Notes under the pieces: model-generated
What the model saw: the letters and a program-made list of their open reading frames with translations, nothing else
Told to the model about the DNA's origin: nothing
Databases searched by the model: none
Position numbers and translations under genes: made by a program
Assembly: GCA_040754655.1 (NCBI GenBank)
Contig: JBFMCE010000097.1
Coordinates: forward strand, 1-14,436
From: Bdellovibrionota bacterium
Lineage (GTDB): Bacteria; Bdellovibrionota; UBA1018; UBA923
Direction of reading: 5' to 3'
DNA: 14,436 nt
Shown: positions 1 through 14,375 of the stretch, one piece after another
Layout of the letters: every line of letters begins with the position of its first letter
How positions within the stretch are numbered: position 1 is the stretch's first letter

Positions 1-142
1 TCGGATCGTGAGTAGGCGGATTCGCGAATGCAGGGGTGGGGATACTCCAAAGCGCCGAAGAAAGCGCTAGCGCGATGCTACGAATCGCCAGCCTTGTTTT
101 CAACGAGCGGAAAGAAAAACAAACTTTTTCCCTTGATGCCAT
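1..142 (-). CDS. 5' part of an exported (Sec signal peptide) protein running off the left edge; not in the ORF track
   Basis: ATG at 142-140 preceded by AAAAGGGGGATGTAAA (RBS-like). Open frame MASREKVCFSFRSLKTRLAIRSIALALSSALWSIPTPAFA-NPPTHDP to the window edge, with a basic n-region, a hydrophobic core and an AFA cleavage site. Confidence 0.7.
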   Translation of the reverse strand, partial: MASREKVCFSFRSLKTRLAIRSIALALSSALWSIPTPAFANPPTHDP

Positions 143-168
143 TTTACATCCCCCTTTTACTCTTCCCG

Positions 169-199
169 GCCTCGATTGAGTCGTTGATCCAATCGAGGC
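169..199. repeat. Perfect 10-bp inverted repeat (hairpin) just upstream of the RBS of the minus-strand gene
   Basis: GCCTCGATTG (169-178) / CAATCGAGGC (190-199), 11-nt loop. Confidence 0.7.
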
Positions 200-396
200 G
201 CACGGCCACCAGTTCGCCACAGCAAGGCACGACTAACAATCGATAAGAAAAGCGTCAAGAAATTCAGCAGTTTAGATCAAGATCCCAAAACGGGAAAAGT
301 TTGCTGCCCACGCCATTATAACCGACAAAAATACTTTTAATACAAAACAAAATCAGTCCGATATAGTCAGTGTTAGTTATTCAATGGGACCGCTGC

Positions 397-468
397 GAGA
401 GGAGATGTTGATCATACCCTATCCCAACATCTCCTCCCACGCGCGGAACACATCAACAAACCCGCGCG
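397..468 (-). repeat. Two tandem hairpins immediately 3' of the SPFH stop codon (3'-end stabiliser or atypical terminator)
   Basis: GAGGAGATGTTG (399-410) / CAACATCTCCTC (425-436) is a perfect 12-bp stem that extends to 15 bp through G-U pairs only on the minus strand. CGCGCGG (440-446) / CCGCGCG (462-468) is a 7-bp stem. No U-tract follows. Confidence 0.6.
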
Positions 469-472
469 AAGC

Positions 473-1231
473 TCAACGCCCTCCGCCACTAAACATTCCC
501 TTCATCAATTCCAAAGGAATCGGCATGAAGGTGGTTGTATTTCGCTCAGAAGAAATCTCAACCATCGTTTGCAAATAGCGCAGTTGAATGGTGATCGGGT
601 TTTGATTCATCACCTCCGCTGCCTCGGAAAGTTTTTTAGAAGCCTGATATTCACCGTCGGCAGCGATAATCTTCGCCCGGCGTTCTCGTTCCGCCTCTGC
701 TTGGCGGGCCATCGCACGCTGCATCTCGGCTGGCAGGTCGATCTGTTTTACTTCAACGTTTGAAACCTTGACACCCCAAGGTTCGGTCTGGGTATCAAGG
801 ATTGTCTGCAATTTGTGGTTGATTGCCTCACGCGCAGACAAAAGTTCATCGAGCTCGACTTGTCCCATCACCGAGCGCAACGTCGTTTGCGCGAGTTTCG
901 AAGTCGCGAGCAAGTAATTCTCAACTTCGACCACAGCGCGGTTGGGATCTAAAACCCTAAAATAAACGACTGCATTGACTTTGACCGTGACGTTATCGCG
1001 GGTGATCGCATCTTGCGCCGGAACATCTAAAGTTACGGTGCGCAAATCGACTCGAACCATCTTATCGACCACGGGAATCAGTAAGATCAAACCCGGTCCT
1101 TTCGCACCTTGGATGCGTCCCAGGCGAAAGATCACGCCCCTTTCATACTCATTGAGGATGCGAACCGCCATCGCAAGGAATGAGCCGATGATCATGATGA
1201 ATAATATTGCGCCGCCTGATAAGAATTCCAT
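473..1231 (-). CDS. SPFH/band 7 (stomatin-like, slipin) membrane protein
   Basis: N-terminal TM segment; motifs [63 protein letters not shown] and LRYLQT; directly downstream of nfeD. Confidence 0.96.
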
Positions 1232-2518
1232 TTACGCTTTCCTCACTCTAAGCTTGAAGCCTTTGTTCTCAATAACCGAAATTCGGTCTCCAACATGCAC
1301 CGAATGATCAGGATCGAAAAGTTCAAAATCCCAAATTTCGCCCCTCATGAGGCATTTGCCTTGCCTGCCTGCGGCATCGATCGACTGCACTACGCCCTCA
1401 AAACCTTCCATATGGCTTAACCCTCGATAAACCCCGCGCCGGGCCCGAAGAAGGCTTGTGCCGACAAAAAACGCAATGAGACCGATCGCCAAAACCGTAG
1501 GCAGCACAAGAGCCAAGGAAAGCCTCAGGTCTCCGGTCGACGGATCCATCAAAAACAAGGCTCCTAGGACAAGGGAAACGATTCCACCGATCGTCAAAAC
1601 GCCATAACTTGTGACGAAAACCTCAAGAACAAACAAAACAAGGCCCAAGACCAAAAGCGCCACGGCGCCTGAATTGATTGGAAGAGTAGAAAATGAAATG
1701 AATGCCAGTATCAAGCAGATCGAACCTAAGACACCAGGAAAGATCAAACCTGGCGAAGTCAACTCGGCATAAAGCCCAAGCCCGCCGGCTACCATCAAGA
1801 GGTAACTGACGTTAGGATCGCCCAAGAAAGACAAAAGCCTTTCACCCGCCGTCATCGTGATTTTTTCAACCGCGCTTCCGACCACGCCCACGATTTGTTT
1901 CTTTCCAGAAGGTAAAGCGACCACCCTACCCTCGGTCTCGGTCAGCATTTTCTCAAGATCGATCGCCAGAAAATCTATTACTCGAAGCTTCACGGCCTCG
2001 TCCGCCGGCACCGAAACCGACTTGCGAATGGATTGTTCAGCCCATTCGGCATTCCTACCGCGAAGCTGGGCCTGAGACTTGATGAAAGCAACCGTGTCGT
2101 TCACTGCCTTTTCGGCCATATCACCCTTGATGTCTTGGCCCTGACCGGCGACAGGATGTGCAGCACCGATATTCGTCCCGGGCGCCATCGCAGCGACATG
2201 AGCGCTCATGGTAATGATGGTACCCGCGCTTGTGGCCGACGCTCCTGACGGCGAAACATAAACGGCGACTGGAACCGAACTCTGACCGATGCTCTGAACG
2301 ATTTCCCGAGTAGAAGAGAGAAGCCCCCCGGGAGTGCTCATGACCACGACTAAAAGAGAAGAATTCTGCGCCGTCGCCAAATCAATACTACGCTGTATAT
2401 AGCGAACCGTTCCGGTGTTGATAACGCCGTTTACTTGCGCGACGTATACTTTCGAGGAAGCATGAGCTGAAAAAACAAAGAAAACCGAGAATACCCACAA
2501 AACTGAGAATCGCTTCAT
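1232..2518 (-). CDS. nfeD: Long-form NfeD: ClpP-like (S49-type) serine protease domain, membrane domain and C-terminal OB-fold
   Basis: Signal peptide (AHA), TPGG, ATSAG (catalytic Ser), MAPGTNIGAAHPV, EKAVND (catalytic Lys), RGRNAEWAE, several TM helices, RGEIW; canonical pairing with an SPFH gene. Confidence 0.94.
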   Translation of the reverse strand: MKRFSVLWVFSVFFVFSAHASSKVYVAQVNGVINTGTVRYIQRSIDLATAQNSSLLVVVMSTPGGLLSSTREIVQSIGQSSVPVAVYVSPSGASATSAGTIITMSAHVAAMAPGTNIGAAHPVAGQGQDIKGDMAEKAVNDTVAFIKSQAQLRGRNAEWAEQSIRKSVSVPADEAVKLRVIDFLAIDLEKMLTETEGRVVALPSGKKQIVGVVGSAVEKITMTAGERLLSFLGDPNVSYLLMVAGGLGLYAELTSPGLIFPGVLGSICLILAFISFSTLPINSGAVALLVLGLVLFVLEVFVTSYGVLTIGGIVSLVLGALFLMDPSTGDLRLSLALVLPTVLAIGLIAFFVGTSLLRARRGVYRGLSHMEGFEGVVQSIDAAGRQGKCLMRGEIWDFELFDPDHSVHVGDRISVIENKGFKLRVRKA

Positions 2519-3348
2519 GGTTTCAGCTCCGCCATGACCTTCTTCATGTCTTCCCAGACTTCCTTCTTGGCCTCAGGATTCCTCAATAAGAAGGCCGGAT
2601 GATAAGTCGGCATCAGCTTAGTGCCTCGATATACGGTGAAATTTCCCCTCATTTTGGTGATCTTTACGTCTCCGCCCAACAAGCAGCGCAATGCCGTGGC
2701 GCCAAGAGCGACGATCACCTTGGGTTTGATGCAATCGATTTGCCTGAAAAGAAACTGCTCACAAGTGCCTGCTTCATCCGGTTCAGGAACACGGTTTCCC
2801 GGCGGGCGGCACTTCACGACGTTTGCGATATAAACCTGCTCACGACTGAGGCCCATTGCTTCAATGATTTTATCCAACAACTGGCCTGCCTTGCCAACGA
2901 AGGGCCTGCCTTGCAGATCCTCTTGTTCACCAGGGCCTTCTCCGACAAACATAAGAGTAGAATCAGGGGATCCTTCGCCAAAAACAATGTTCTTTCGGGT
3001 CTTGCAAAGCTTACAGCGCTGGCAGTCGCCGATTTCTTGTTGAATTTCCCGCAAAATGGCAGCTCGTTCTGTAACAGGCTGAATCGCCTTTAAAGAAGCG
3101 CTCTGTTCAGACTGGCCCTGCTCTCGCCGCAAATCTTGAGTTTGAGCCAGCTGTGCTGGTACTGGTACTGGCGCCGGTGCAGATGCAGGCGCTGAGGCTT
3201 GAGACGGAACGCGAGAAGGCGGCGCATCCCCGCGCGCTACACGTTGTTGAGCGCGCCATCGCCGTTCCAACCAAGCCTTCGAAATAAAAGCGGATCGCCC
3301 GTAAGCCAGCTCTAAGCTTTCTTTCCAGAGAGAAAATTTTTCCTGCAT
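2515..3348 (-). CDS. udg: Uracil-DNA glycosylase family 4 ([4Fe-4S]) with an N-terminal extension and Pro/Ala linker
   Basis: CQRCKL, VFGEG, VGEGPGEQED, GRPFVGKAGQLL, NVVKCRPPGNRVP, PTYHPAFLLR; stop overlaps the nfeD start (ATGA at 2515-2518). Confidence 0.95.
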   Translation of the reverse strand: MQEKFSLWKESLELAYGRSAFISKAWLERRWRAQQRVARGDAPPSRVPSQASAPASAPAPVPVPAQLAQTQDLRREQGQSEQSASLKAIQPVTERAAILREIQQEIGDCQRCKLCKTRKNIVFGEGSPDSTLMFVGEGPGEQEDLQGRPFVGKAGQLLDKIIEAMGLSREQVYIANVVKCRPPGNRVPEPDEAGTCEQFLFRQIDCIKPKVIVALGATALRCLLGGDVKITKMRGNFTVYRGTKLMPTYHPAFLLRNPEAKKEVWEDMKKVMAELKP

Positions 3349-3606: not shown

Positions 3607-4797
3607 GTGGCTATGAAGAAGAAAAGACCTTCTCTGACCAGCACAACCTTAATTGCAAGCCTGGCAACAGTGCTCGTCCTTTCTTTTTTGTCAGGTTGTG
3701 GCGACGAAACCAATAATGGTTTGAGCTCGGATGCGGAAGAGTACGATGCCTCTCAGCTCGATCAAGAGATCACCCTTGAAGACCTTGGCGGCGCCGAGTA
3801 CTTGGGTTTCCTCGAAGAAGCTCAAAAAGAAGAAGAAATCAAAAAGAGCGTAGAGAAAATAGAAAAAATTGAGCAAAAAATCGAGGAAATCGATCAAAAG
3901 CCGCAATCTTCCGTACCGGATCGCTCTGAGAAAATCAGGCTTGAGAAACAAAAGATCAAAGAAAAAGCCATCGCCAACGCACGCGAATGGGAGTTGAGGA
4001 TCAGTCGCCACTTGAACAGAAACTCAAGCTCAGCGAACCTGAAATACCACAACGACCACTCCTGGCAGTGGGATGAGGGCGTAAGACGGTTTCTGCACCA
4101 TTACAACGAGGTATACAAAGACCCCAAGAGCGGGCGCCGTGGCGTTTATCCACCGGTGACGGCGGCTGATTACCGCGGGTATATTTTTGGCGGCGACCCG
4201 ATCTGCGTCAACCCCAGAACCTACGCCAATGTTTTTGACGTGGCTTGCGGCGCCGACTGTCGCTCTTTCGTGCGCTGGAACTACAAGAACGCGATGTCAG
4301 TTGAAGCAAAACTTCCCATGCTTGCAACCCAGTATATGATCGACATCATCTTGCCCTATCTTGATGTCGAGAAAGAGCGGCCAGGCCCCCTGAGCTACTC
4401 TTATCGAAAACAGCTTGCCCGTGAAAAGTACGTCGACCGCATCAAAAAGAAAGCCCAATACCTGCGCTCAATCGGTGAACGCGGCGTCGATGCGACCTGG
4501 GAGCAAACGCACATTGGTTATTTTGATTACTTCAATTACGTTACTGACGGCGAAGCTCAGAACGGCGACTATGTCGTTTACATCCTGCACACGGATAAGA
4601 GCTATCGTGAAAGCGGCCACGTGGCTCTTTTGGTCGATATCAATGGCGGAAAAAACGCCACCCTTGGCGCTTCTACTGGCAAGAGCGGGCTCATCTACTA
4701 TTCATACCTACCAAACAAGACTCATCTGCTCCGCCCGAACTTGAACAAGATCTTAAGCGAGCTCAAAGGCGAGGAAATCGCCGACGACGAGCCGTAA
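3607..4797 (+). CDS. Lipoprotein with acidic linker, coiled coil and a divergent NlpC/P60-like (papain-fold) Cys peptidase domain; start may be ATG 3613
   Basis: Lipobox LSGC (C31); E/K-rich helical stretch; GYIFGG (cf. YxWGG), ADCRSFV (C218, codon 4258-4260), GDYVVY and SGHVALL (H338, codon 4618-4620). Confidence 0.7.
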   Translation: MAMKKKRPSLTSTTLIASLATVLVLSFLSGCGDETNNGLSSDAEEYDASQLDQEITLEDLGGAEYLGFLEEAQKEEEIKKSVEKIEKIEQKIEEIDQKPQSSVPDRSEKIRLEKQKIKEKAIANAREWELRISRHLNRNSSSANLKYHNDHSWQWDEGVRRFLHHYNEVYKDPKSGRRGVYPPVTAADYRGYIFGGDPICVNPRTYANVFDVACGADCRSFVRWNYKNAMSVEAKLPMLATQYMIDIILPYLDVEKERPGPLSYSYRKQLAREKYVDRIKKKAQYLRSIGERGVDATWEQTHIGYFDYFNYVTDGEAQNGDYVVYILHTDKSYRESGHVALLVDINGGKNATLGASTGKSGLIYYSYLPNKTHLLRPNLNKILSELKGEEIADDEP

Positions 4798-4812
4798 CAC
4801 AAAGAGCCCGGC

Positions 4813-5340
4813 TCAGCTCTCGCGTTCAACCTCAGTCTCGTACTTGAGCTTTCCTGGCGGCATACAGCTTCCCCTGATGTAATAGCGCCGCGGCTCTCGA
4901 ATGATCTGTGCGCACCCGAAGTCATCGGATTTCGAAGAAGGGTTACGGCTGAATTCAAAAGAGTCGTCGATCGCCTTCTGAGCGCCGTGCTCGCTGGCGG
5001 TTTCAACTGCGAATTCGACTACAACCGTTGCTCCTTTCGAGACAACTGCCTTGATTTTCACGCTGCGAACCACTGCCCAGTTCCGCAGATCGCTGCAGGC
5101 CCCTTCATTGCACTCGCTTGGACCAATATTGAGGCTTGGAAACTTCTCTTTGTTCACGCAGCCCTTGCTTTGATGCGGAAATCTGCGGCCCGAAAGCTCC
5201 CATTCCAGAAGATCACGGGCTAATTCTTCGTCACTGCGAGAAGAACACTGCCGAGGCTGGGAAGCCGCCTTTTGCCGGGAAGCCATGGCATTCCAGACTG
5301 AAAACCACGCCATGAACAACAAGATGAAAAAATACTTCAT
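4813..5340 (-). CDS. Small exported 6-Cys hypothetical protein, translationally coupled to the upstream NlpC/P60-like gene
   Basis: Signal peptide MKYFFILLFMAWFSVWNAMA; six Cys; ATGA overlap at 5337-5340. Confidence 0.75.
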   Translation of the reverse strand: MKYFFILLFMAWFSVWNAMASRQKAASQPRQCSSRSDEELARDLLEWELSGRRFPHQSKGCVNKEKFPSLNIGPSECNEGACSDLRNWAVVRSVKIKAVVSKGATVVVEFAVETASEHGAQKAIDDSFEFSRNPSSKSDDFGCAQIIREPRRYYIRGSCMPPGKLKYETEVERES

Positions 5341-6827
5341 TGGCTACTTCTCCCGTCTTCATTCATCGATTGAAAAAAATCAAGGCCCGGCCCAAGAAGG
5401 CGTTTGCCGAATTCCTTAAGCAAGTGTTTACGAAAACATCCTTGAATGCACTCGTCATTCAAGATCTTAAGCCTCTTCTCGGGTGGAGCCGTGCATCCGG
5501 CCTTTTTTTCCCCGACGTGCCGGATGATTGAAGCTGCGCGGCCTTCATACCCGTGAACGATGGCTTGAAAAACAGGTTCTTTCTTTTTCCTCCTGTTTTT
5601 CTGCCGAGGATCCGCTTGAGGCGGGTTCTCGCGGTAAAGCTTGGCCCTGCAGGCCTGCAGGGCCAAAAACTCAATCACTGCGATTCCATTCTTGCTGAAG
5701 AACTTTCTTGCTTCCATGCGATTGACGCCAAGATTGCCGGAAATCGAACTCTGGAGGATCGAGAAATTGAACTTGCGAGGATCGATCTGATCACGCGTGC
5801 AACGAGTGACGTCCTTCAAACCGAAAGGATCGGTGCCGACCTGATCGATCATTACGATGTGCTTCGACCACGAAATCACATCTCCTGCTCTCAGGCTCGA
5901 GCTCTTGAAATCCACCGTCTCAAAACAATCGTCCTTTCTTCCAAGATCCATATAGTCTTTCGCTCCGATCCCGTAAGAGCCATAACTGTCGTCGTTAGGG
6001 CGAACTCTGAGCCCAGAGGCCGCAAGCGCCGCCGAGACAAACCCTGAGCAATCTAACGCAAAGTAAGGAGCTCCCTGGGCATGCTTTTCGGTATGCAAGT
6101 TGATCACCCTATTGTTCGCATCAAATGGCTCTAATTTAGCGCCAAACTCATAAAGGACTGGTGTGCGCGAGAGATCAACGCAGCGATTCGCTTCGCCACT
6201 GCATCTTTCGTATCCGGCCACGCACTCGCGCTGTTCGGGAAGACAGCTTTCCGGGTTTCCAAGGCAATTCGCGCTTGCGCACAACGGGCCTCCGCCGCTC
6301 TGTTCGCAAAGCCCTTCAATGCACCTGTTGTACGCATCATGGCATGCGGCGCGAGGATTGGGCCAATCCTTAAGATAATAGTGAGAGTTGATGACGCCCA
6401 TGAGAGGCGAGGTCGGAATGACGCCTTTGGCGATCAATCGACTCTCAAGCTTCGGTGAAAGCACGGGAATGATGCGGTCTAACCTTCCGGGAAATTCCCG
6501 TGACGGGTAAACATCCAGCGCCCAGCCAGGAATGCCCCCATGAGTTTCGTCATCGTACTCGCCTTTCTCAAGCACATGGCAACTCTGGTACATCACCGCC
6601 ATGATCTTGCGCGCTCCGAATTGAGGTTCCATCGAAAGCTCTAAGAGGGAATCCCCTAGGCGCGCGATGTCTTTGGCGGCGGCGTCGACTTGCGCTCCTA
6701 CCGGTGCGCCTTCAGTACTCACGGGGTATCGGCAAGCCTTGTTGACATCTTCAAGGTCGCCGGTAGGCCGTGCGAAAACCAGAGGTAAAAGTGTGAAGTA
6801 AAAAGAGAAAGCAAAAAGGATTCTCAA
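5337..6827 (-). CDS. Secreted Cys-rich protein with an NlpC/P60-like catalytic domain (putative peptidoglycan peptidase/amidase)
   Basis: TTG start after GAGAGGG; signal peptide ending VFA; LYEFGA, LDCSGFVSAAL (C260, codon 6048-6050), LRAGDVISWSKHIVMI (H323, codon 5859-5861), ILQSS; 18 Cys in total. Confidence 0.78.
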   Translation of the reverse strand: MRILFAFSFYFTLLPLVFARPTGDLEDVNKACRYPVSTEGAPVGAQVDAAAKDIARLGDSLLELSMEPQFGARKIMAVMYQSCHVLEKGEYDDETHGGIPGWALDVYPSREFPGRLDRIIPVLSPKLESRLIAKGVIPTSPLMGVINSHYYLKDWPNPRAACHDAYNRCIEGLCEQSGGGPLCASANCLGNPESCLPEQRECVAGYERCSGEANRCVDLSRTPVLYEFGAKLEPFDANNRVINLHTEKHAQGAPYFALDCSGFVSAALAASGLRVRPNDDSYGSYGIGAKDYMDLGRKDDCFETVDFKSSSLRAGDVISWSKHIVMIDQVGTDPFGLKDVTRCTRDQIDPRKFNFSILQSSISGNLGVNRMEARKFFSKNGIAVIEFLALQACRAKLYRENPPQADPRQKNRRKKKEPVFQAIVHGYEGRAASIIRHVGEKKAGCTAPPEKRLKILNDECIQGCFRKHLLKEFGKRLLGPGLDFFQSMNEDGRSSQ

Positions 6828-6976
6828 AAAACACCCTCTCGTAATCTCTCATTGTACCACGGTCCAAAGCCGCCTTGGTGAGGCAAGTTTTTCCGTATCA
6901 AGCCCATCGCCCTGTGTGCCGAAACCAAGAATAAGTAAGGCGTTTTTCGATTTTTTGTCGCAAGGAGGCGCAAATC

Positions 6977-7210
6977 ATGAATACCAAGACTGAAAATTCC
7001 CTCGATCCCACTGCCCTCTGTTTCGAAGAATATCAAGACTGCTTTGGCGAAGCCGGTGAAGTGATGAAGCGGCATCTTCTATGCACCTTATGCGGTGGTC
7101 ACCTGCACTTTAACCATCTCTCTGATTTCAAGCACGGTTTGATTCAAGAAACCGCACGCTGCCCTGATTGCGGCATTCGCGTGAGACAACGGCTGCATAA
7201 AGTTCAGTGA
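6977..7210 (+). CDS. Small zinc-ribbon protein (CxxC-x22-CxxC), function unknown
   Basis: Perfect RBS AAGGAGG at 6962-6968; CTLC and CPDC pairs. Confidence 0.8.
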   Translation: MNTKTENSLDPTALCFEEYQDCFGEAGEVMKRHLLCTLCGGHLHFNHLSDFKHGLIQETARCPDCGIRVRQRLHKVQ

Positions 7211-7327: not shown

Positions 7328-7585
7328 ATGAAAATTGCAGCTATTTCCGAACTCAAAGCGAAGCTGGCCCGGTACATTCGACTTGTAAAGTCCGGGGAAG
7401 AGGTCGAGATCCATGAACGTGGGGTACCTGTGGCTCGTCTTACGTCGATAAGGAAAGAATCCGTTCTTGCGCTGACTCCCCCTCGAAGAAGCCCTTCTTC
7501 TTTGGCCAAGTACCGTTTCTCAGTGAAGCCAGTTTCAAAATTCGACGTCGTTGAGTTGCTTTTAGAAGATAGAGCAAAAAGGTGA
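7328..7585 (+). CDS. Type II antitoxin, Phd/YefM (prevent-host-death) family
   Basis: ISELKAKLARYIRLVKSGEEVEIHERGVPVARL signature; GTGA overlap with a PIN toxin gene. Confidence 0.92.
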   Translation: MKIAAISELKAKLARYIRLVKSGEEVEIHERGVPVARLTSIRKESVLALTPPRRSPSSLAKYRFSVKPVSKFDVVELLLEDRAKR

Positions 7586-8007
7586 TCGCTTATATCGACT
7601 CATCAGTCATGATGCGCGTCTTGCTAGGCCAAGCCAACGCTTTAAAAGAGTTTTCCAAAGTTGAACGACCAGTGGCAAGCAAGCTTTTGAAGGTTGAAGG
7701 CCTCAGAACCTTAGACCGACTGCGAACCCGTGGAATGTTGACAGAAACTGAATTCATAAAAAGCGCCGAAGAGTTTCGAGATTCGATTGATGCTATCGAA
7801 TGGATAGAAATCACGGACGCAATCTTAGATAGGGTCGGTGGCAATTTTGCGGTCGCGCTTGGAACCCTTGATGCCATTCACCTCTCATCAGCCTTGCTCT
7901 GGAAAGAACAAACCAAAATGAGTCTTCATTTCTTAACCCACGACGAGATTCTCGGCAGGGCCGCCCGATCTCTGGGATTTCATGTTTTGGGCTGTCTTGA
8001 AGGTTAA
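7582..8007 (+). CDS. vapC: Type II toxin, VapC/PIN-domain ribonuclease
   Basis: YIDSS, VE, LGTLDAIHLSSAL, FLTHD..L..AA..LG; acidic PIN residues present. Confidence 0.92.
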   Translation: MIAYIDSSVMMRVLLGQANALKEFSKVERPVASKLLKVEGLRTLDRLRTRGMLTETEFIKSAEEFRDSIDAIEWIEITDAILDRVGGNFAVALGTLDAIHLSSALLWKEQTKMSLHFLTHDEILGRAARSLGFHVLGCLEG

Positions 8008-9849: not shown

Positions 9850-10296
9850 ATGCCTGCCTCAGGTACTGGTTCAGAAGTGTTGGCCTACTGCGGGAGCTGC
9901 AAGATGGACCTTTCTGCGGTCATTGTGGCTCAAATTGGCTCTAAGATAGCGAAAGTTCAATGCAAGACCTGCAAAAAAGAACACGCTTACAAAGGTCCAA
10001 AAGGCGCCAAAGAGCCTTCGAAAGCCGCTATTGCAAAGAAGAAAAAGTCTGCTGAAGCTGCCGAAGCCGCAGAGTCCGCTCGAGCCGTTTCATTTGAAAC
10101 GGAATGGAAGCGGCTCATGGGTGAAGCTGAAAAGGCGCCTCGCGTCAGCTACACGATCAAATCTCAACTCAAAGTGGGTGATGTCATCAAACACACCAAC
10201 TTTGGGGACGGCATCGTAACCCGCCTGATCCATCCCGACAAAGCTGAAGTGCTTTTTCGCACGGACATGAAGCTTCTGATTCACTCTCGGAGCTGA
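9850..10296 (+). CDS. Hypothetical protein: N-terminal C4 zinc finger, Lys/Ala-rich linker, C-terminal PcrA/UvrD-type Tudor-like domain
   Basis: GGAG RBS at 9837-9840; CGSC and CKTC; LKVGDVIKHTNFGDGIV...EVLF...KLL matches the GDxVxHxxFGxGxV pattern. Confidence 0.78.
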   Translation: MPASGTGSEVLAYCGSCKMDLSAVIVAQIGSKIAKVQCKTCKKEHAYKGPKGAKEPSKAAIAKKKKSAEAAEAAESARAVSFETEWKRLMGEAEKAPRVSYTIKSQLKVGDVIKHTNFGDGIVTRLIHPDKAEVLFRTDMKLLIHSRS

Positions 10297-11894
10297 AACG
10301 TTCTTCGCGCAATCAGGCACATGCGGTGGGACTGAATTCCTGAGAAGGGTTCTGGCTCACGAACACCAGGCATGACTCTCATCACATTAAGGCCGTGCTC
10401 TTCGAGCATCGAGCGCCACTGCGAAAGCGTATAGTGCCGCATGCGAAGCTCGGCTCTGCGGGTGCTTTGATCAGGACGAACAATCTTTCGTCTCTCGATG
10501 GTAGTTCCACGAAACCAGTCCCACCTGATCTCGCGCAGCAACATCCCATAAGGAGACTCTTCATAGTCGCGGCTGTAACCCGTACCTTGAAGCTCCCTCA
10601 CCAACCATTCGCGATTGCCGGTTTCGATAAAGGCTCTTCCACCGATTTTCAAGACTCTGGCCATCGTTTCAAGCACGCGCTCATCATCGGCCGCCTCATC
10701 AAAATACCCAAGTACGGAATCAAAGTGTAAAAGCGCGTCAGCGGCCTTGGGCATCTTGATCGTGCGTACATCACCATGAATGATCTGGATCTGCCCTGGT
10801 TTGGGTTCTGAATCCGTACCAATGATCGAGATTCCTTTGTCATTTGCGGTGCGTATCGTCTGAGCCAAGAGAGGTTCCGACAAATCAACCGCCGTCACGG
10901 CGAATCCCCTGCTTGCAAGTTCAAGGGCATGGCGCCCGTAGCCGCTTCCCAAATCGATGATATGACCGCCCGCGGGAACCTGCAATTCCTTCAAGATGAA
11001 ATCAACATCGCGCCTGGCTTGCGGTTCTTCCCAATGGCGTCTCAGTTGCATGTACTCTTCATCAAAATGGCTTCTCCACCACGGGATAGCGCCATCTTCA
11101 GCATCAGGTTCCGCTTCGGAGCGAGATCTCAGCCATGGAAGAACGGCATCGATGACTTCAGGGCTCATTCGCGTATTGAAAAACTGAAGCGGGCTGTCTT
11201 CTTGAGGCTCGTGGTGCTCTTCTGGCGAGAGCAAATGGCCTAATCCCGGAAGCACGAGGCCAAGACAAGAATCAAGCCCTTTCTCTAAACCAATGGTGAC
11301 GGGATCATGCACCAATCTCGCTTCAGAAACCTCTCGAAACGCATGATCTTCTTTCCCGCAGATGATCAGATAAGGCACTTCAACTGAAGCGAAATGCGAC
11401 AGCTCTACGACATTTGAAAGCAAAACGATGCCCTGGATGAGCGCCGCTCTTTGAAGGTCAGCAATCTTATCGATCACAAGCCTTGTGCCTTGGCTTTGAC
11501 CCAAAAGAAAAACGCGCCAGTCGTCTACGTCAGGGTGAGAAATCGCGTGCAGAGTCGCGCAATAAAGGTCTTCCGACAGAGTTCTTTCATCATCCGGGGA
11601 AAACTTGCCCTGACTTTGCCCACAACCCCTTTTGTCGTATCGAAAAACAGCGTACCCAGCCGCGGTCAAGCCGCGAGCGAGCGTGAGAAACCCGTCATAA
11701 TGAGGAATCGCCGGGCCATTGCAGTTTCGGTCTCGTCCGGCGCGGTTATGCGCCATGATCATCAAAGGTCGTCGACCTCCATAGAGCACCGGATCAGGAA
11801 AGTTCCATTCACCGGCGAGCTCAGTCTGATCGGTAGACTCGAAATGCGTCTGTTGAATTTTCACGGCATCTCCTGACATAATAAGGTGCACCAA
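10281..11894 (-). CDS. Fusion of an alpha/beta-hydrolase (N-terminal) and a class I SAM-dependent methyltransferase (C-terminal); start may be ATG 11879
   Basis: AVFRYDKRGCGQSQG, nucleophile elbow LLGQSQG (Ser codon 11493-11495), GKED, GLGH; then IIDLGSGYGRHA, VTAVDLS, GDVR, LKIGG in one uninterrupted frame. Confidence 0.85.
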   Translation of the reverse strand: MVHLIMSGDAVKIQQTHFESTDQTELAGEWNFPDPVLYGGRRPLMIMAHNRAGRDRNCNGPAIPHYDGFLTLARGLTAAGYAVFRYDKRGCGQSQGKFSPDDERTLSEDLYCATLHAISHPDVDDWRVFLLGQSQGTRLVIDKIADLQRAALIQGIVLLSNVVELSHFASVEVPYLIICGKEDHAFREVSEARLVHDPVTIGLEKGLDSCLGLVLPGLGHLLSPEEHHEPQEDSPLQFFNTRMSPEVIDAVLPWLRSRSEAEPDAEDGAIPWWRSHFDEEYMQLRRHWEEPQARRDVDFILKELQVPAGGHIIDLGSGYGRHALELASRGFAVTAVDLSEPLLAQTIRTANDKGISIIGTDSEPKPGQIQIIHGDVRTIKMPKAADALLHFDSVLGYFDEAADDERVLETMARVLKIGGRAFIETGNREWLVRELQGTGYSRDYEESPYGMLLREIRWDWFRGTTIERRKIVRPDQSTRRAELRMRHYTLSQWRSMLEEHGLNVMRVMPGVREPEPFSGIQSHRMCLIARRTFQLRE

Positions 11895-12590: not shown

Positions 12591-14375
12591 CTATTGGCTC
12601 GCTTCCGCGCCGAAAGCGATGAACTGGTCCGTGACCGAGAGATTGTCCGCGGCGATCCAAGCGGCCGAACGTTCAGTGTTCGAGAAGCGAACCTCATCAA
12701 TTCGACCGTCCCATGAGCTCACGGCCGAATCTTTCGAGCCCTTGCCGATCAAGAATTTGGTCGCGCCTGTGATGCCACCGTTACGCGCGGCCGAATTGAA
12801 GGTCGGTGTATTCAGAACGCCATCGATGTAAATCTTCAAAGCGCCGTTTGCCGGGCGGCTTATGACGATGTATTGCCAATCCGTAGTCTGAACGCCAGAC
12901 GCGCTCTCAAGCTGAAGTGTATTGCCCCCGCCCACTGTGATGCCCGCTTTGATGACGTTCGAGCCACCCCCGCTTGCTCCATCGACGTCGTATCTTAAGC
13001 TCAATACGTCGTCTGAGCCGTTGGGGGTCTTCGCGCTGATGATGCCTTTGTCGGTGCCCGTGATGTTTGATTTCACCCATACAGATAAAGTGAATGCATT
13101 GACTCCGTTCACATAAAATTCGCCATCGTCATCGTTGAGCTCATCGCCTGCGCCGTCGAACTTGAGGCTCCCACCTGCTTGCCCTGCGACTTGGTCATCG
13201 CTGGCCATCGTGGCGCTCGCGACGGCATGCGCAGCATTCGAAGTGCTGTCGGCCATTTGACGGGCCCCCAACGAAGGGTCTTCCTTGAGATGCCATACAG
13301 CCCTGAAGTTTGCGTTCCAAACCGCAGTTGGATTTCGACCGTCGGCTGCCGCTGCATTTCCGTGATACATCCAGATAGAGTCTGATGCTGATGAAGCATC
13401 AATACGAGGCACTTTCACCCAAACGTACGAAGTGCCGTTCTCATCCCACTTTTCAATCTCATGAGACAACAATGTCTTTCCATCGGTGTCAGTGAACCTA
13501 AGGTCTTGACCGCTATTCTGGGTTTCTGCGTAGTTGATTCGACTGCTATTCAGTACGACCAAAACCGGGAAGTCGGTGAGATTCTCAGATTGTGCCCCAT
13601 TCCGGAAGGTAAGCCTACGGCGCTTGGTCCAATTGTTATCAAGCCAGTCGGCCACCGTAATAGACACGGTCGCGGTATTACTGAAGTCATCGCCATCATT
13701 CACTCGAAAAGTGAACGAGTCAGAACCCGCGAAGTCGAGACCGGGCGTATAAGTGAGGTTTGGGGCAGTGCCCGTAAGAGCGCCATTCGCGGGGTTAGTC
13801 ACGACCGAATAAGTCAGTGCATCGCTGTCACCATCGATCGCTGCAAGCGTGATCGAAACTCCCGTGTTGATTTGAGTGGTGATCTGCTGGCTTGAGGCAA
13901 TTGGAATATCTTCAACAGAAGTCACTGAAATTGAAACCGTGGCAACATTCGAATCGGCCAATGCGTCTCTTGCTTTGAATGTAAAACTGTCAGCTCCATT
14001 TACGTTGGGGTTTGGCGAGTATTGAAAGGCTCCCGTAGAAGCATTCGTGATCATCACAGTGCCCTTGGTTGGATTGGTCACGATTGAAAACGTGAGGGCG
14101 TCGCCATTGGCATCTGTCGCGGTTAGGACGCCAGTGAGCAGATCATCTTCAAGCACCGTTACAACGCTGCCAACCGCTACCGGAGGCTCTTGAGGCGCGA
14201 TTGTGTTGCCTGAACCAAGGCCGGATATGCCAGCTATCCCGTCTGAGCCCCCACCTGCGCCTGCACCTATTCCTCCACCCAGACCTTTGGGCGAACAGCC
14301 CGTTCCAGCCAAAGCCAAGGTTAAGCCGAGTGTCGCTAGAAGCATCGAATTGAGGTTGAAAAACACTCTATCCAT
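12591..14375 (-). CDS. Surface (probable lipo)protein: Gly-rich linker, two cadherin-like/Ig repeats, DUF2341 and a LamG/concanavalin A-like domain
   Basis: Hydrophobic leader ending AGTGC; two repeats with DxxGDALT(F/Y)S.VTNP..G...Y.P....G.DSFTF...D....SN.ATVSI.V; FPVLV, DLRFTD, EIEKWD, VWVKVP, IWMYHGN; FTLSVWVK, KIYIDG, GRIDEVRFSN..RS..WI. Confidence 0.85.
   Translation of the reverse strand: MDRVFFNLNSMLLATLGLTLALAGTGCSPKGLGGGIGAGAGGGSDGIAGISGLGSGNTIAPQEPPVAVGSVVTVLEDDLLTGVLTATDANGDALTFSIVTNPTKGTVMITNASTGAFQYSPNPNVNGADSFTFKARDALADSNVATVSISVTSVEDIPIASSQQITTQINTGVSITLAAIDGDSDALTYSVVTNPANGALTGTAPNLTYTPGLDFAGSDSFTFRVNDGDDFSNTATVSITVADWLDNNWTKRRRLTFRNGAQSENLTDFPVLVVLNSSRINYAETQNSGQDLRFTDTDGKTLLSHEIEKWDENGTSYVWVKVPRIDASSASDSIWMYHGNAAAADGRNPTAVWNANFRAVWHLKEDPSLGARQMADSTSNAAHAVASATMASDDQVAGQAGGSLKFDGAGDELNDDDGEFYVNGVNAFTLSVWVKSNITGTDKGIISAKTPNGSDDVLSLRYDVDGASGGGSNVIKAGITVGGGNTLQLESASGVQTTDWQYIVISRPANGALKIYIDGVLNTPTFNSAARNGGITGATKFLIGKGSKDSAVSSWDGRIDEVRFSNTERSAAWIAADNLSVTDQFIAFGAEASQ

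Follow-up and report, generated by a model that had tools for sequence, protein, structure and literature searches.

On contig JBFMCE010000097.1 of a Bdellovibrionota bacterium, two genes for large exported proteins with NlpC/P60-like motifs stand on either side of a gene for a small exported protein, and the locus raises the question of whether the three form one system or, if not, which of them belong together. The contig, 14,436 nucleotides long and analysed whole (hereafter the window), belongs to an assembly of 3.78 Mb in 196 contigs that is 90% complete. A look-up of sequencing runs gave none, and no RNA data set. In the first-pass annotation the three genes, here called A, B and C, were read as a single hydrolase-immunity module in which the small middle protein could inhibit one or both enzymes. 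The three open reading frames (ORFs) lie where they had been placed, with the ordered motifs at C218/H338 in A and C260/H323 in C, and the sequence confirms A as a lipoprotein (lipobox Cys31), C as the bearer of a type-I signal peptide (N-terminus ending V-F-A) and B as a 175-residue exported protein with six cysteines, coupled by ATGA to C. The module itself fared badly in the comparison with related genomes. The conserved functional unit is a two-gene, translationally coupled C-B operon, an undescribed peptidase-partner pair confined to Bdellovibrionota. The features concerned are the following.

3607-4797, plus strand: gene A, a 396-residue lipoprotein of a very rare family, probably with an NlpC/P60-like fold and a helical insertion; outside the C-B pair.
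4813-5340, minus strand: gene B, a 175-residue exported protein with four conserved and two extra cysteines; partner of C, of no known family.
5337-6827, minus strand: gene C, a 496-residue Sec-exported, Cys-rich and divergent NlpC/P60-fold protein, a predicted cysteine peptidase.
5337-5340, minus strand: ATGA overlap of the C stop and B start, read from the sequence; translational coupling.

The pair was followed by a profile survey of C and B in 116 genomes of the order, where the C profile matched 24 genomes and the B profile 18. Of the 19 B matches, 16 follow a C match immediately and in the same orientation, and two more stand beside short C-type ORFs under the C threshold, which brings those directly downstream of a C-type gene to 18 of 19. 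The other match is on a short contig, apart from the C gene of its genome; orphan B genes are nearly absent. An iterated B profile has added one further C-B pair, and a search with the single protein had given B homologues in three relatives, where B follows immediately after a C homologue every time and the context is a different one at all three loci. The genes flanking the pair vary between loci, and the pair spans three families of the order. In the window, the ATG of B (5340-5338) overlaps the TGA of C (5339-5337), forming the sequence ATGA.

A locus pattern scan, derived from a narrower C alignment (A5), recovered 27 loci, all 27 in public records titled Bdellovibrionota. B is present at three of the 27, which is no frequency because the search pattern favours a clade of lipoprotein C forms (described below). 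Two of the scan records come from Bdellovibrio isolates in culture; in each of them C is the lipoprotein form that has no B. Among the papers listed for Bdellovibrio with NlpC, no title or abstract opening gives an account of the C-B pair. A different arrangement has been observed at one locus, L023 (G076:C38), where a C-type gene (1498-3261, minus strand) is followed by a second ORF (3-1319, minus strand) which shares its N-terminal region and is not B; a B match of this genome lies on another short contig, apart from that C-type gene.

Gene C starts at a TTG (6827) with GAGGG upstream. Its N-terminus, MRILFAFSFYFTLLPLVFA/RP (the stroke marking the end of the signal), is hydrophobic and was judged by eye to be a type-I signal peptide. 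The motifs Y226-E-F-G-A, D259-C260-S-G-F-V, G315-D316-V-I and H323-I-V follow in this order. Conservation was read from alignments of seven C sequences (A1), 30 C-family sequences (A3), B sequences (A2), 21 B-family members (A6) and six A-family members (A4). Residues D259, C260, G315, D316, H323 and D333-P334-F335 are invariant in A1, and the D-P at 333-334 is kept in 30 of 30 sequences in A3. The putative catalytic residues and the main insertion of C are placed as follows.

6048-6050, minus strand: codon of Cys260, the putative nucleophile of C (D-C-S-G-F-V); invariant in A1, kept in 25 of 30 sequences in A3, first residue of the model helix 260-270.
5859-5861, minus strand: codon of His323, the putative catalytic histidine of C; invariant in A1, kept in 25 of 30 in A3, within the model strand 323-330.
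5829-5831, minus strand: codon of Asp333 (D-P-F-G), the candidate third triad residue of C; invariant in 30 of 30 in A3, 10 residues past His323.
6180-6359, minus strand: Cys-rich insertion of C, residues 157-216 with 11 Cys; mostly gaps in the other A1 sequences, modelled as helices 158-176 and 197-214.

Asp333, within the invariant D-P-F-G motif, is the likely third residue of the triad. The 11-Cys insertion is largely specific to the window protein in the A1 alignment, and knottin toxins were matched by it at chance level only. C also has eight or more conserved cysteines and a conserved Cys-rich C-terminal tail.

There is a firm case, in the predicted structure and in family profiles, that C is a very divergent protein of the NlpC/P60 fold. 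Within its family, 18 of 30 members match Pfam NLPC_P60 (best E 6.8e-5) and 13 of 30 match the endolysin-like domain PF25309. The C-family profile gave nine weak matches in the PDB, all of them NlpC/P60 and at or around the D-C-S-G motif; with C as a single sequence, the PDB search gave chance-level matches only, and NCBIfam holds no match for A, B or C. The model of C, built from the 30-sequence alignment, has a predicted local distance difference test score (pLDDT) of 77.3 and a predicted template modelling score (pTM) of 0.76. In a Foldseek comparison, the top seven rows and 12 of the 13 top rows are NlpC/P60 proteins, at weak E values of 0.04-1.2. VIA-align has NlpC/P60 domains in every one of its first 19 rows, with CwlO at the head (8wt3_A; Z 9.8, root mean square deviation 2.7 Å, 129 of 134 residues). 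In the model, Cys260 starts a helix and His323 lies on the sheet that follows, a papain-like alpha+beta arrangement; that the two side chains face each other is implied by the way the whole domain superposes on solved enzymes. The core is split, with helices near residues 62-80 and then residues 224-440, and about 145 residues are inserted between the two parts. A whole-genome scan found C to be the sole NLPC_P60 match at E up to 0.01 (18.5 bits, under the cut-off). Because this only match is sub-threshold, the genome, as represented by a 90% complete assembly, seems to be without a canonical NlpC/P60 enzyme. By analogy with the D,L-endopeptidases which it resembles most, C most likely cuts the stem peptides of peptidoglycan.

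The signal peptide of B ends in WNAMA/S. Its cysteines are found at positions 32, 61, 77, 82, 143 and 159, of which four (32, 61, 143 and 159) are invariant in A2, and an E-L-S-G motif is conserved in the family. B has no sequence match in Pfam, NCBIfam or the PDB, and with an E limit of 10 its profile finds nothing in the PDB; among the 21 family members, neither ankyrin nor any other Pfam family is matched. In a profile search of 5.8 billion proteins, only 14 B-family proteins were returned, all of 150-175 residues and all unnamed or labelled 'hypothetical'. An Atlas look-up with a B homologue gave feature scores of 0.84 or less, which serve as a lead only.

Natural variants of the pair bear on what B does. 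In five species of one genus, short forms of C (about 305 residues) have Ser in place of the catalytic Cys and Gln in place of the His, with B still downstream.

L005, L034, L035, L045 and L048, in genomes G033, G031, G048, G046 and G018: short dead-C loci with the Ser and Gln substitutions and B adjacent.

In the least saturated comparison among these loci, the ratio of nonsynonymous to synonymous substitution rates (dN/dS) is 0.09 for B against 0.23 for C, and amino acid identity is 92% for B against 70% for C. Since B is under strong purifying selection beside a C that lacks both Cys and His, it is kept where there is nothing to inhibit. Judged from their sequences, the short C forms and B are a retained pair of predicted pseudoenzyme and partner, under purifying selection. 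The opposite situation, C without B, has also been detected. The B-less homologues of C form a single clade of 29 rows, with a Shimodaira-Hasegawa-like approximate likelihood ratio test (SH-aLRT) value of 99, in a quick LG+G4 tree of 53 distinct rows (57, with four identical ones merged) that was midpoint-rooted with no outgroup. Lipoproteins that possess an additional N-terminal domain make up nearly all of this clade; the B-linked forms, in contrast, have type-I signal peptides. Of the 24 B-less loci from the pattern scan, 20 show a strict lipobox. The possibility that the lipoprotein forms carry B fused into their N-terminal domain was considered and rejected, as B profiles match separate B-type ORFs only, and never a C-type ORF, in the loci searched. 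Taken together, the dead-C pairs, the B-less lipoprotein clade and the near lack of orphan B genes fit better with a stoichiometric partner, acting in regulation or localisation and replaceable by a lipid anchor, than with a plain antidote. In the active C-B pairs, B may all the same have a role in latency or self-protection.

Gene A codes for 396 residues from a GTG (3607), and a database copy (P0005) starts two codons on, at the ATG at 3613. The lipobox reads L-S-G-C. The motifs Y192-I-F-G-G, D217-C218-R-S-F-V, G320-D321-Y-V and G337-H338-V occupy columns which, D217-C218, G320-D321 and G337-H338 included, are invariant in six of six family members (A4).

4258-4260, plus strand: codon of Cys218, the putative catalytic cysteine of A; invariant in A4, first residue of the model helix 218-230, at low model confidence.
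4618-4620, plus strand: codon of His338, the putative catalytic histidine of A; invariant in A4, within the model strand 334-344.

At the usual position of the third residue, the window protein has Ser, three of the six members have His and a paralogue of A has Val. The family is very small, with only six proteins among 1.84 billion representatives in an exhaustive search. Pfam NLPC_P60 does not match the window protein and matches one of the six members (E 4.5e-4), and PDB searches gave chance-level matches with the single sequence and nothing relevant with the profile. The model of A is of low confidence (pLDDT 58.9, pTM 0.54). Its top 18 VIA-align rows are NlpC/P60 domains at Z 5.4-7.2 (3gt2, for one, is covered over 124 of its 135 residues), all of them under 8, where a match can reflect a common arrangement. 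After them come PlyC, a CHAP-domain endolysin, at Z 4.7 and then unrelated chains, none of which exceeds Z 3.9. A helical insertion of about 70 residues (237-310) is modelled inside the domain. When the A and C families were compared with hhalign, the Y-x-F-G and D-C motifs were aligned (E 8e-4, probability 25%). The motifs of both A and C exceed chance strings, because their columns are conserved within each family and the fold predictions agree with them. As far as the model allows, A is probably NlpC/P60-like, of a different and very rare family. The proposal that both large proteins are NlpC/P60-like is thus firm for C, by fold and by profile matches, and only probable for A. Likewise, the structural comparison suggested for the two came out papain-like for C, with Z 9.8 to CwlO, and reached Z 7.2 at most for A.

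Known systems offer several points of comparison. With the NlpC/P60 family (PF00877), C shares the papain-like fold (Z 7.9-9.8) and A probably does (Z 6.2-7.2), the activity here being predicted; C has the same D-C-S-G-F-V nucleophile motif, and the G-D...H motif order is the same. Unlike typical members, C falls under the Pfam cut-off, has an insertion of about 145 residues and has conserved cysteines, while A has its insertion of about 70 residues and a third position that is not conserved. RipD from Mycobacterium tuberculosis (PDB 4jxb), which scores Z 8.3 against the C model, has a non-catalytic NlpC/P60 domain and is a precedent for retained dead forms; we know of no partner protein for it. 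In the Tae/Tai systems, a papain-like wall amidase has an adjacently encoded small periplasmic partner. Tae3 (from Tae3-Tai3, PDB 4hz9) reaches Z 6.2 against the C model, and B is similarly adjacent and exported. The differences are that C has a Sec signal and that the sequence of B matches no solved chain. Among the 14 proteins of the window, no family of the type VI secretion system (T6SS) was matched.

IseA (YoeB) from Bacillus subtilis is presumably similar in size to B. The B profile showed no similarity to IseA in the PDB, the presence of an IseA chain in the searched set being unconfirmed. According to the available part of its description, IseA is secreted and inhibits D,L-endopeptidases of the NlpC/P60 type, which makes it, like B, a small secreted protein associated with NlpC/P60 enzymes outside the cytoplasm, but its gene is separately regulated (WalR-repressed) and not translationally coupled to one enzyme (PMC7299342). 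PnpA from Photobacterium damselae, in the accessible portion of its report, is a type-II-secreted NlpC/P60 endopeptidase that cuts the peptidoglycan of competitors and not its own. It resembles C as a secreted, T6SS-independent NlpC/P60 enzyme, with its gene in an unstable chromosomal region; it differs in that self-protection is through substrate specificity, and the section headings of that report mention no partner gene (PMC7860986). A case from within the phylum is that of Bdellovibrio bacteriovorus, where, in the part of the publication available, Bd3460 protects the cell by inhibiting two DD-endopeptidases, Bd3459 and Bd0816 (PMC4686830). Within the limits of that text, the likeness is in the phylum-level setting and in an exported wall peptidase with an adjacent small exported protein potentially restraining the enzyme. 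The differences are that Bd3459 and Bd0816 are DD-endopeptidases and not NlpC/P60 proteins, that Bd3460 is an ankyrin-repeat protein whereas B has no ankyrin match, and that B persists beside a dead C.

We consider it rather probable that the C-B operon is the functional unit, with B as an obligate regulating or localising partner of C and not a simple immunity protein, and with A standing apart. In such an arrangement C would be exported by Sec and act as a disulfide-rich papain-like peptidase, with Cys260 as nucleophile along with His323 and Asp333, and would cut peptidoglycan stem peptides. Through the ATGA overlap, synthesis of B would keep pace with that of C; B would reach the same compartment by export and may form a one-to-one complex with C that regulates or localises it. 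Taken by itself, the proposal that B is a non-inhibitory or regulatory partner subunit has a somewhat less than even chance. A looser relation, in which B is merely co-transcribed and exported, with an unrelated function of its own and no physical link to C, would agree with the fact that B matches no family tied to peptidoglycan. Adjacency and order hold for 18 of the 19 matches, in three families and in differing contexts, and there are start-stop overlaps; this would be hard to maintain without a functional link, and B as such a passenger is quite improbable. A wider relation, the module of the first-pass annotation, would have A, B and C as one Sec-dependent hydrolase-immunity module with B inhibiting both enzymes. 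It draws on the adjacency of the genes (the stop codons of the convergent A and B are 15 bp apart), on the NlpC/P60-like appearance of both enzymes, on the presence of all three within the same lineage-specific insert that separates udg from uvrC, and on Bd3460 as one protector for two enzymes, as given in the available part of PMC4686830. The distribution of A argues against it. The other C-B loci inspected gene by gene have no A-type gene, and A was not found in any of 40 relatives, C-B carriers included. Among 401 sampled genomes of the phylum, full-length A occurs in two, this one (with two copies) and one other (G406); where this sample gave partial matches, they fell on other divergent proteins, and of four such proteins three match NLPC_P60 weakly. 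The paralogue of A, a 351-residue lipoprotein with 39% identity (L007 / G000:C14:34202-35221, minus strand), adjoins a 433-residue protein and a low-complexity exported protein of 116 residues. Neither at the paralogue nor at the G406 relative is there a B-like or C-like neighbour within flanks of 1.5 kb. A and C are also barely related, as the hhalign probability indicates. The suggested survey of gene neighbourhoods has therefore upheld C and B as a conserved pair and left A out: A is not part of the C-B unit and shares only the udg-uvrC cargo slot with the pair, and a three-gene module is very unlikely.

A narrower version of the protective hypothesis, restricted to C and B, is a more serious alternative, if still a doubtful one. 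C would degrade the wall of prey or of competitors, and B would be its cognate periplasmic inhibitor, keeping C inactive in the producer in the manner of Bd3460, Tai or IseA. The direct downstream position of B, its translational coupling and its export, like that of C, agree with this, as does the occurrence of the family in Bdellovibrionota-titled records only (27 of 27 loci). The lipoprotein clade, whose C forms are tethered to the membrane and pose no risk through free periplasmic diffusion, also has no B. Bd3460 (PMC4686830) and IseA (PMC7299342), as the available parts of both papers present them, are precedents. Against this stands the state of B in five species, at a dN/dS of about 0.09 beside a C without both Cys and His, and B has neither an ankyrin signature nor a sequence match to any solved chain. 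Only one of 19 B matches is not beside a C-type gene. Orphan immunity genes are common in toxin-immunity systems, and their near lack in the B family is unlike immunity families such as Tai.

The reading of B as an obligate partner of a wall peptidase also has points that weigh against it. Gene order, translational coupling and the shared export route would be just as expected of a toxin and its immunity protein. The clade with dead C may have been co-opted later and then tells little about the active pairs, and the C tree, having no outgroup, leaves the loss and gain of B unordered. C itself matches Pfam NLPC_P60 at E 0.012 and 16 bits, under the cut-off of 23 bits. The proposal of peptidoglycan as its substrate comes from resemblance, and the NlpC/P60 superfamily includes amidases and acyltransferases too. 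For B, the structural hint is weak, with an Atlas model at pLDDT 0.54 and NTF2-like rows at template modelling (TM) scores of 0.36-0.45, to be taken as a lead only.

The setting of the three genes is that of cargo in a lineage-specific insertion between udg and uvrC. In four of five genomes of the same family, the uvrC-udg spacing is 0.46-1.9 kb, compared to 4.7 kb here, the two genes being on separate contigs in the fifth. Besides A and the B-C pair, the additional DNA includes a Phd/PIN toxin-antitoxin pair, and a small zinc-ribbon gene that is normally a neighbour of uvrC is also within the gap. This last gene (6977-7210, plus strand) codes for 77 residues with two CxxC pairs (zinc-ribbon-like) and has an AAGGAGG ribosome-binding site; it is a conserved uvrC neighbour, since its homologue adjoins uvrC divergently in another genome (G001). 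An 83-residue ORF on the opposite strand (6824-7075, minus), which apparently overlaps the start of C, was rejected as spurious in view of this 77-residue gene. The type II toxin-antitoxin pair (7328-8007, plus strand) lies between uvrC and the zinc-ribbon gene and consists of a Phd/YefM antitoxin of 85 residues (E 2e-8) and a PIN-domain toxin of 141 residues (E 0.0019, under the cut-off), the two genes overlapping by 4 bases. In G001 (L098 1-1063, minus strand), the udg-uvrC slot has a different secreted protein of more than 354 residues, which indicates that the slot carries varying secreted cargo across genera.

Elsewhere in the window, an NfeD membrane protease-like gene stands in tandem with an SPFH/Band 7 gene (473-2518, minus strand), an ordinary NfeD-stomatin pair. 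A 537-residue fusion (10281-11894, minus strand) combines an alpha/beta-hydrolase (Hydrolase_4) domain with an S-adenosylmethionine-dependent (SAM) methyltransferase domain. A probable lipoprotein of 594 residues (12591-14375, minus strand) has bacterial immunoglobulin (Ig)/cadherin-like repeats, DUF2341 and a LamG-like domain, and is likely a surface adhesin.

Predatory bacteria must cut the walls of their prey while sparing their own, and to our knowledge only one mechanism of predator self-protection, that of Bd3460, has been worked out. The C-B pair constitutes a second candidate enzyme-partner pair, with a different enzyme fold and with a partner outside described families. Bdellovibrionota genomes hold several NlpC/P60-like proteins which are missed by standard family models. 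Tentatively, B may found a new family of regulators of NlpC/P60 proteins in predatory Bdellovibrionota, in which C and B would be exported in a latent state and activated only at the prey wall, while one genus would have turned the pair to non-catalytic wall binding or signalling and the lipoprotein clade would have exchanged B for a lipid anchor and a new N-terminal domain. Three natural contrasts, namely active pairs, dead pairs and partner-less lipoproteins, make the role of B in these organisms directly testable.

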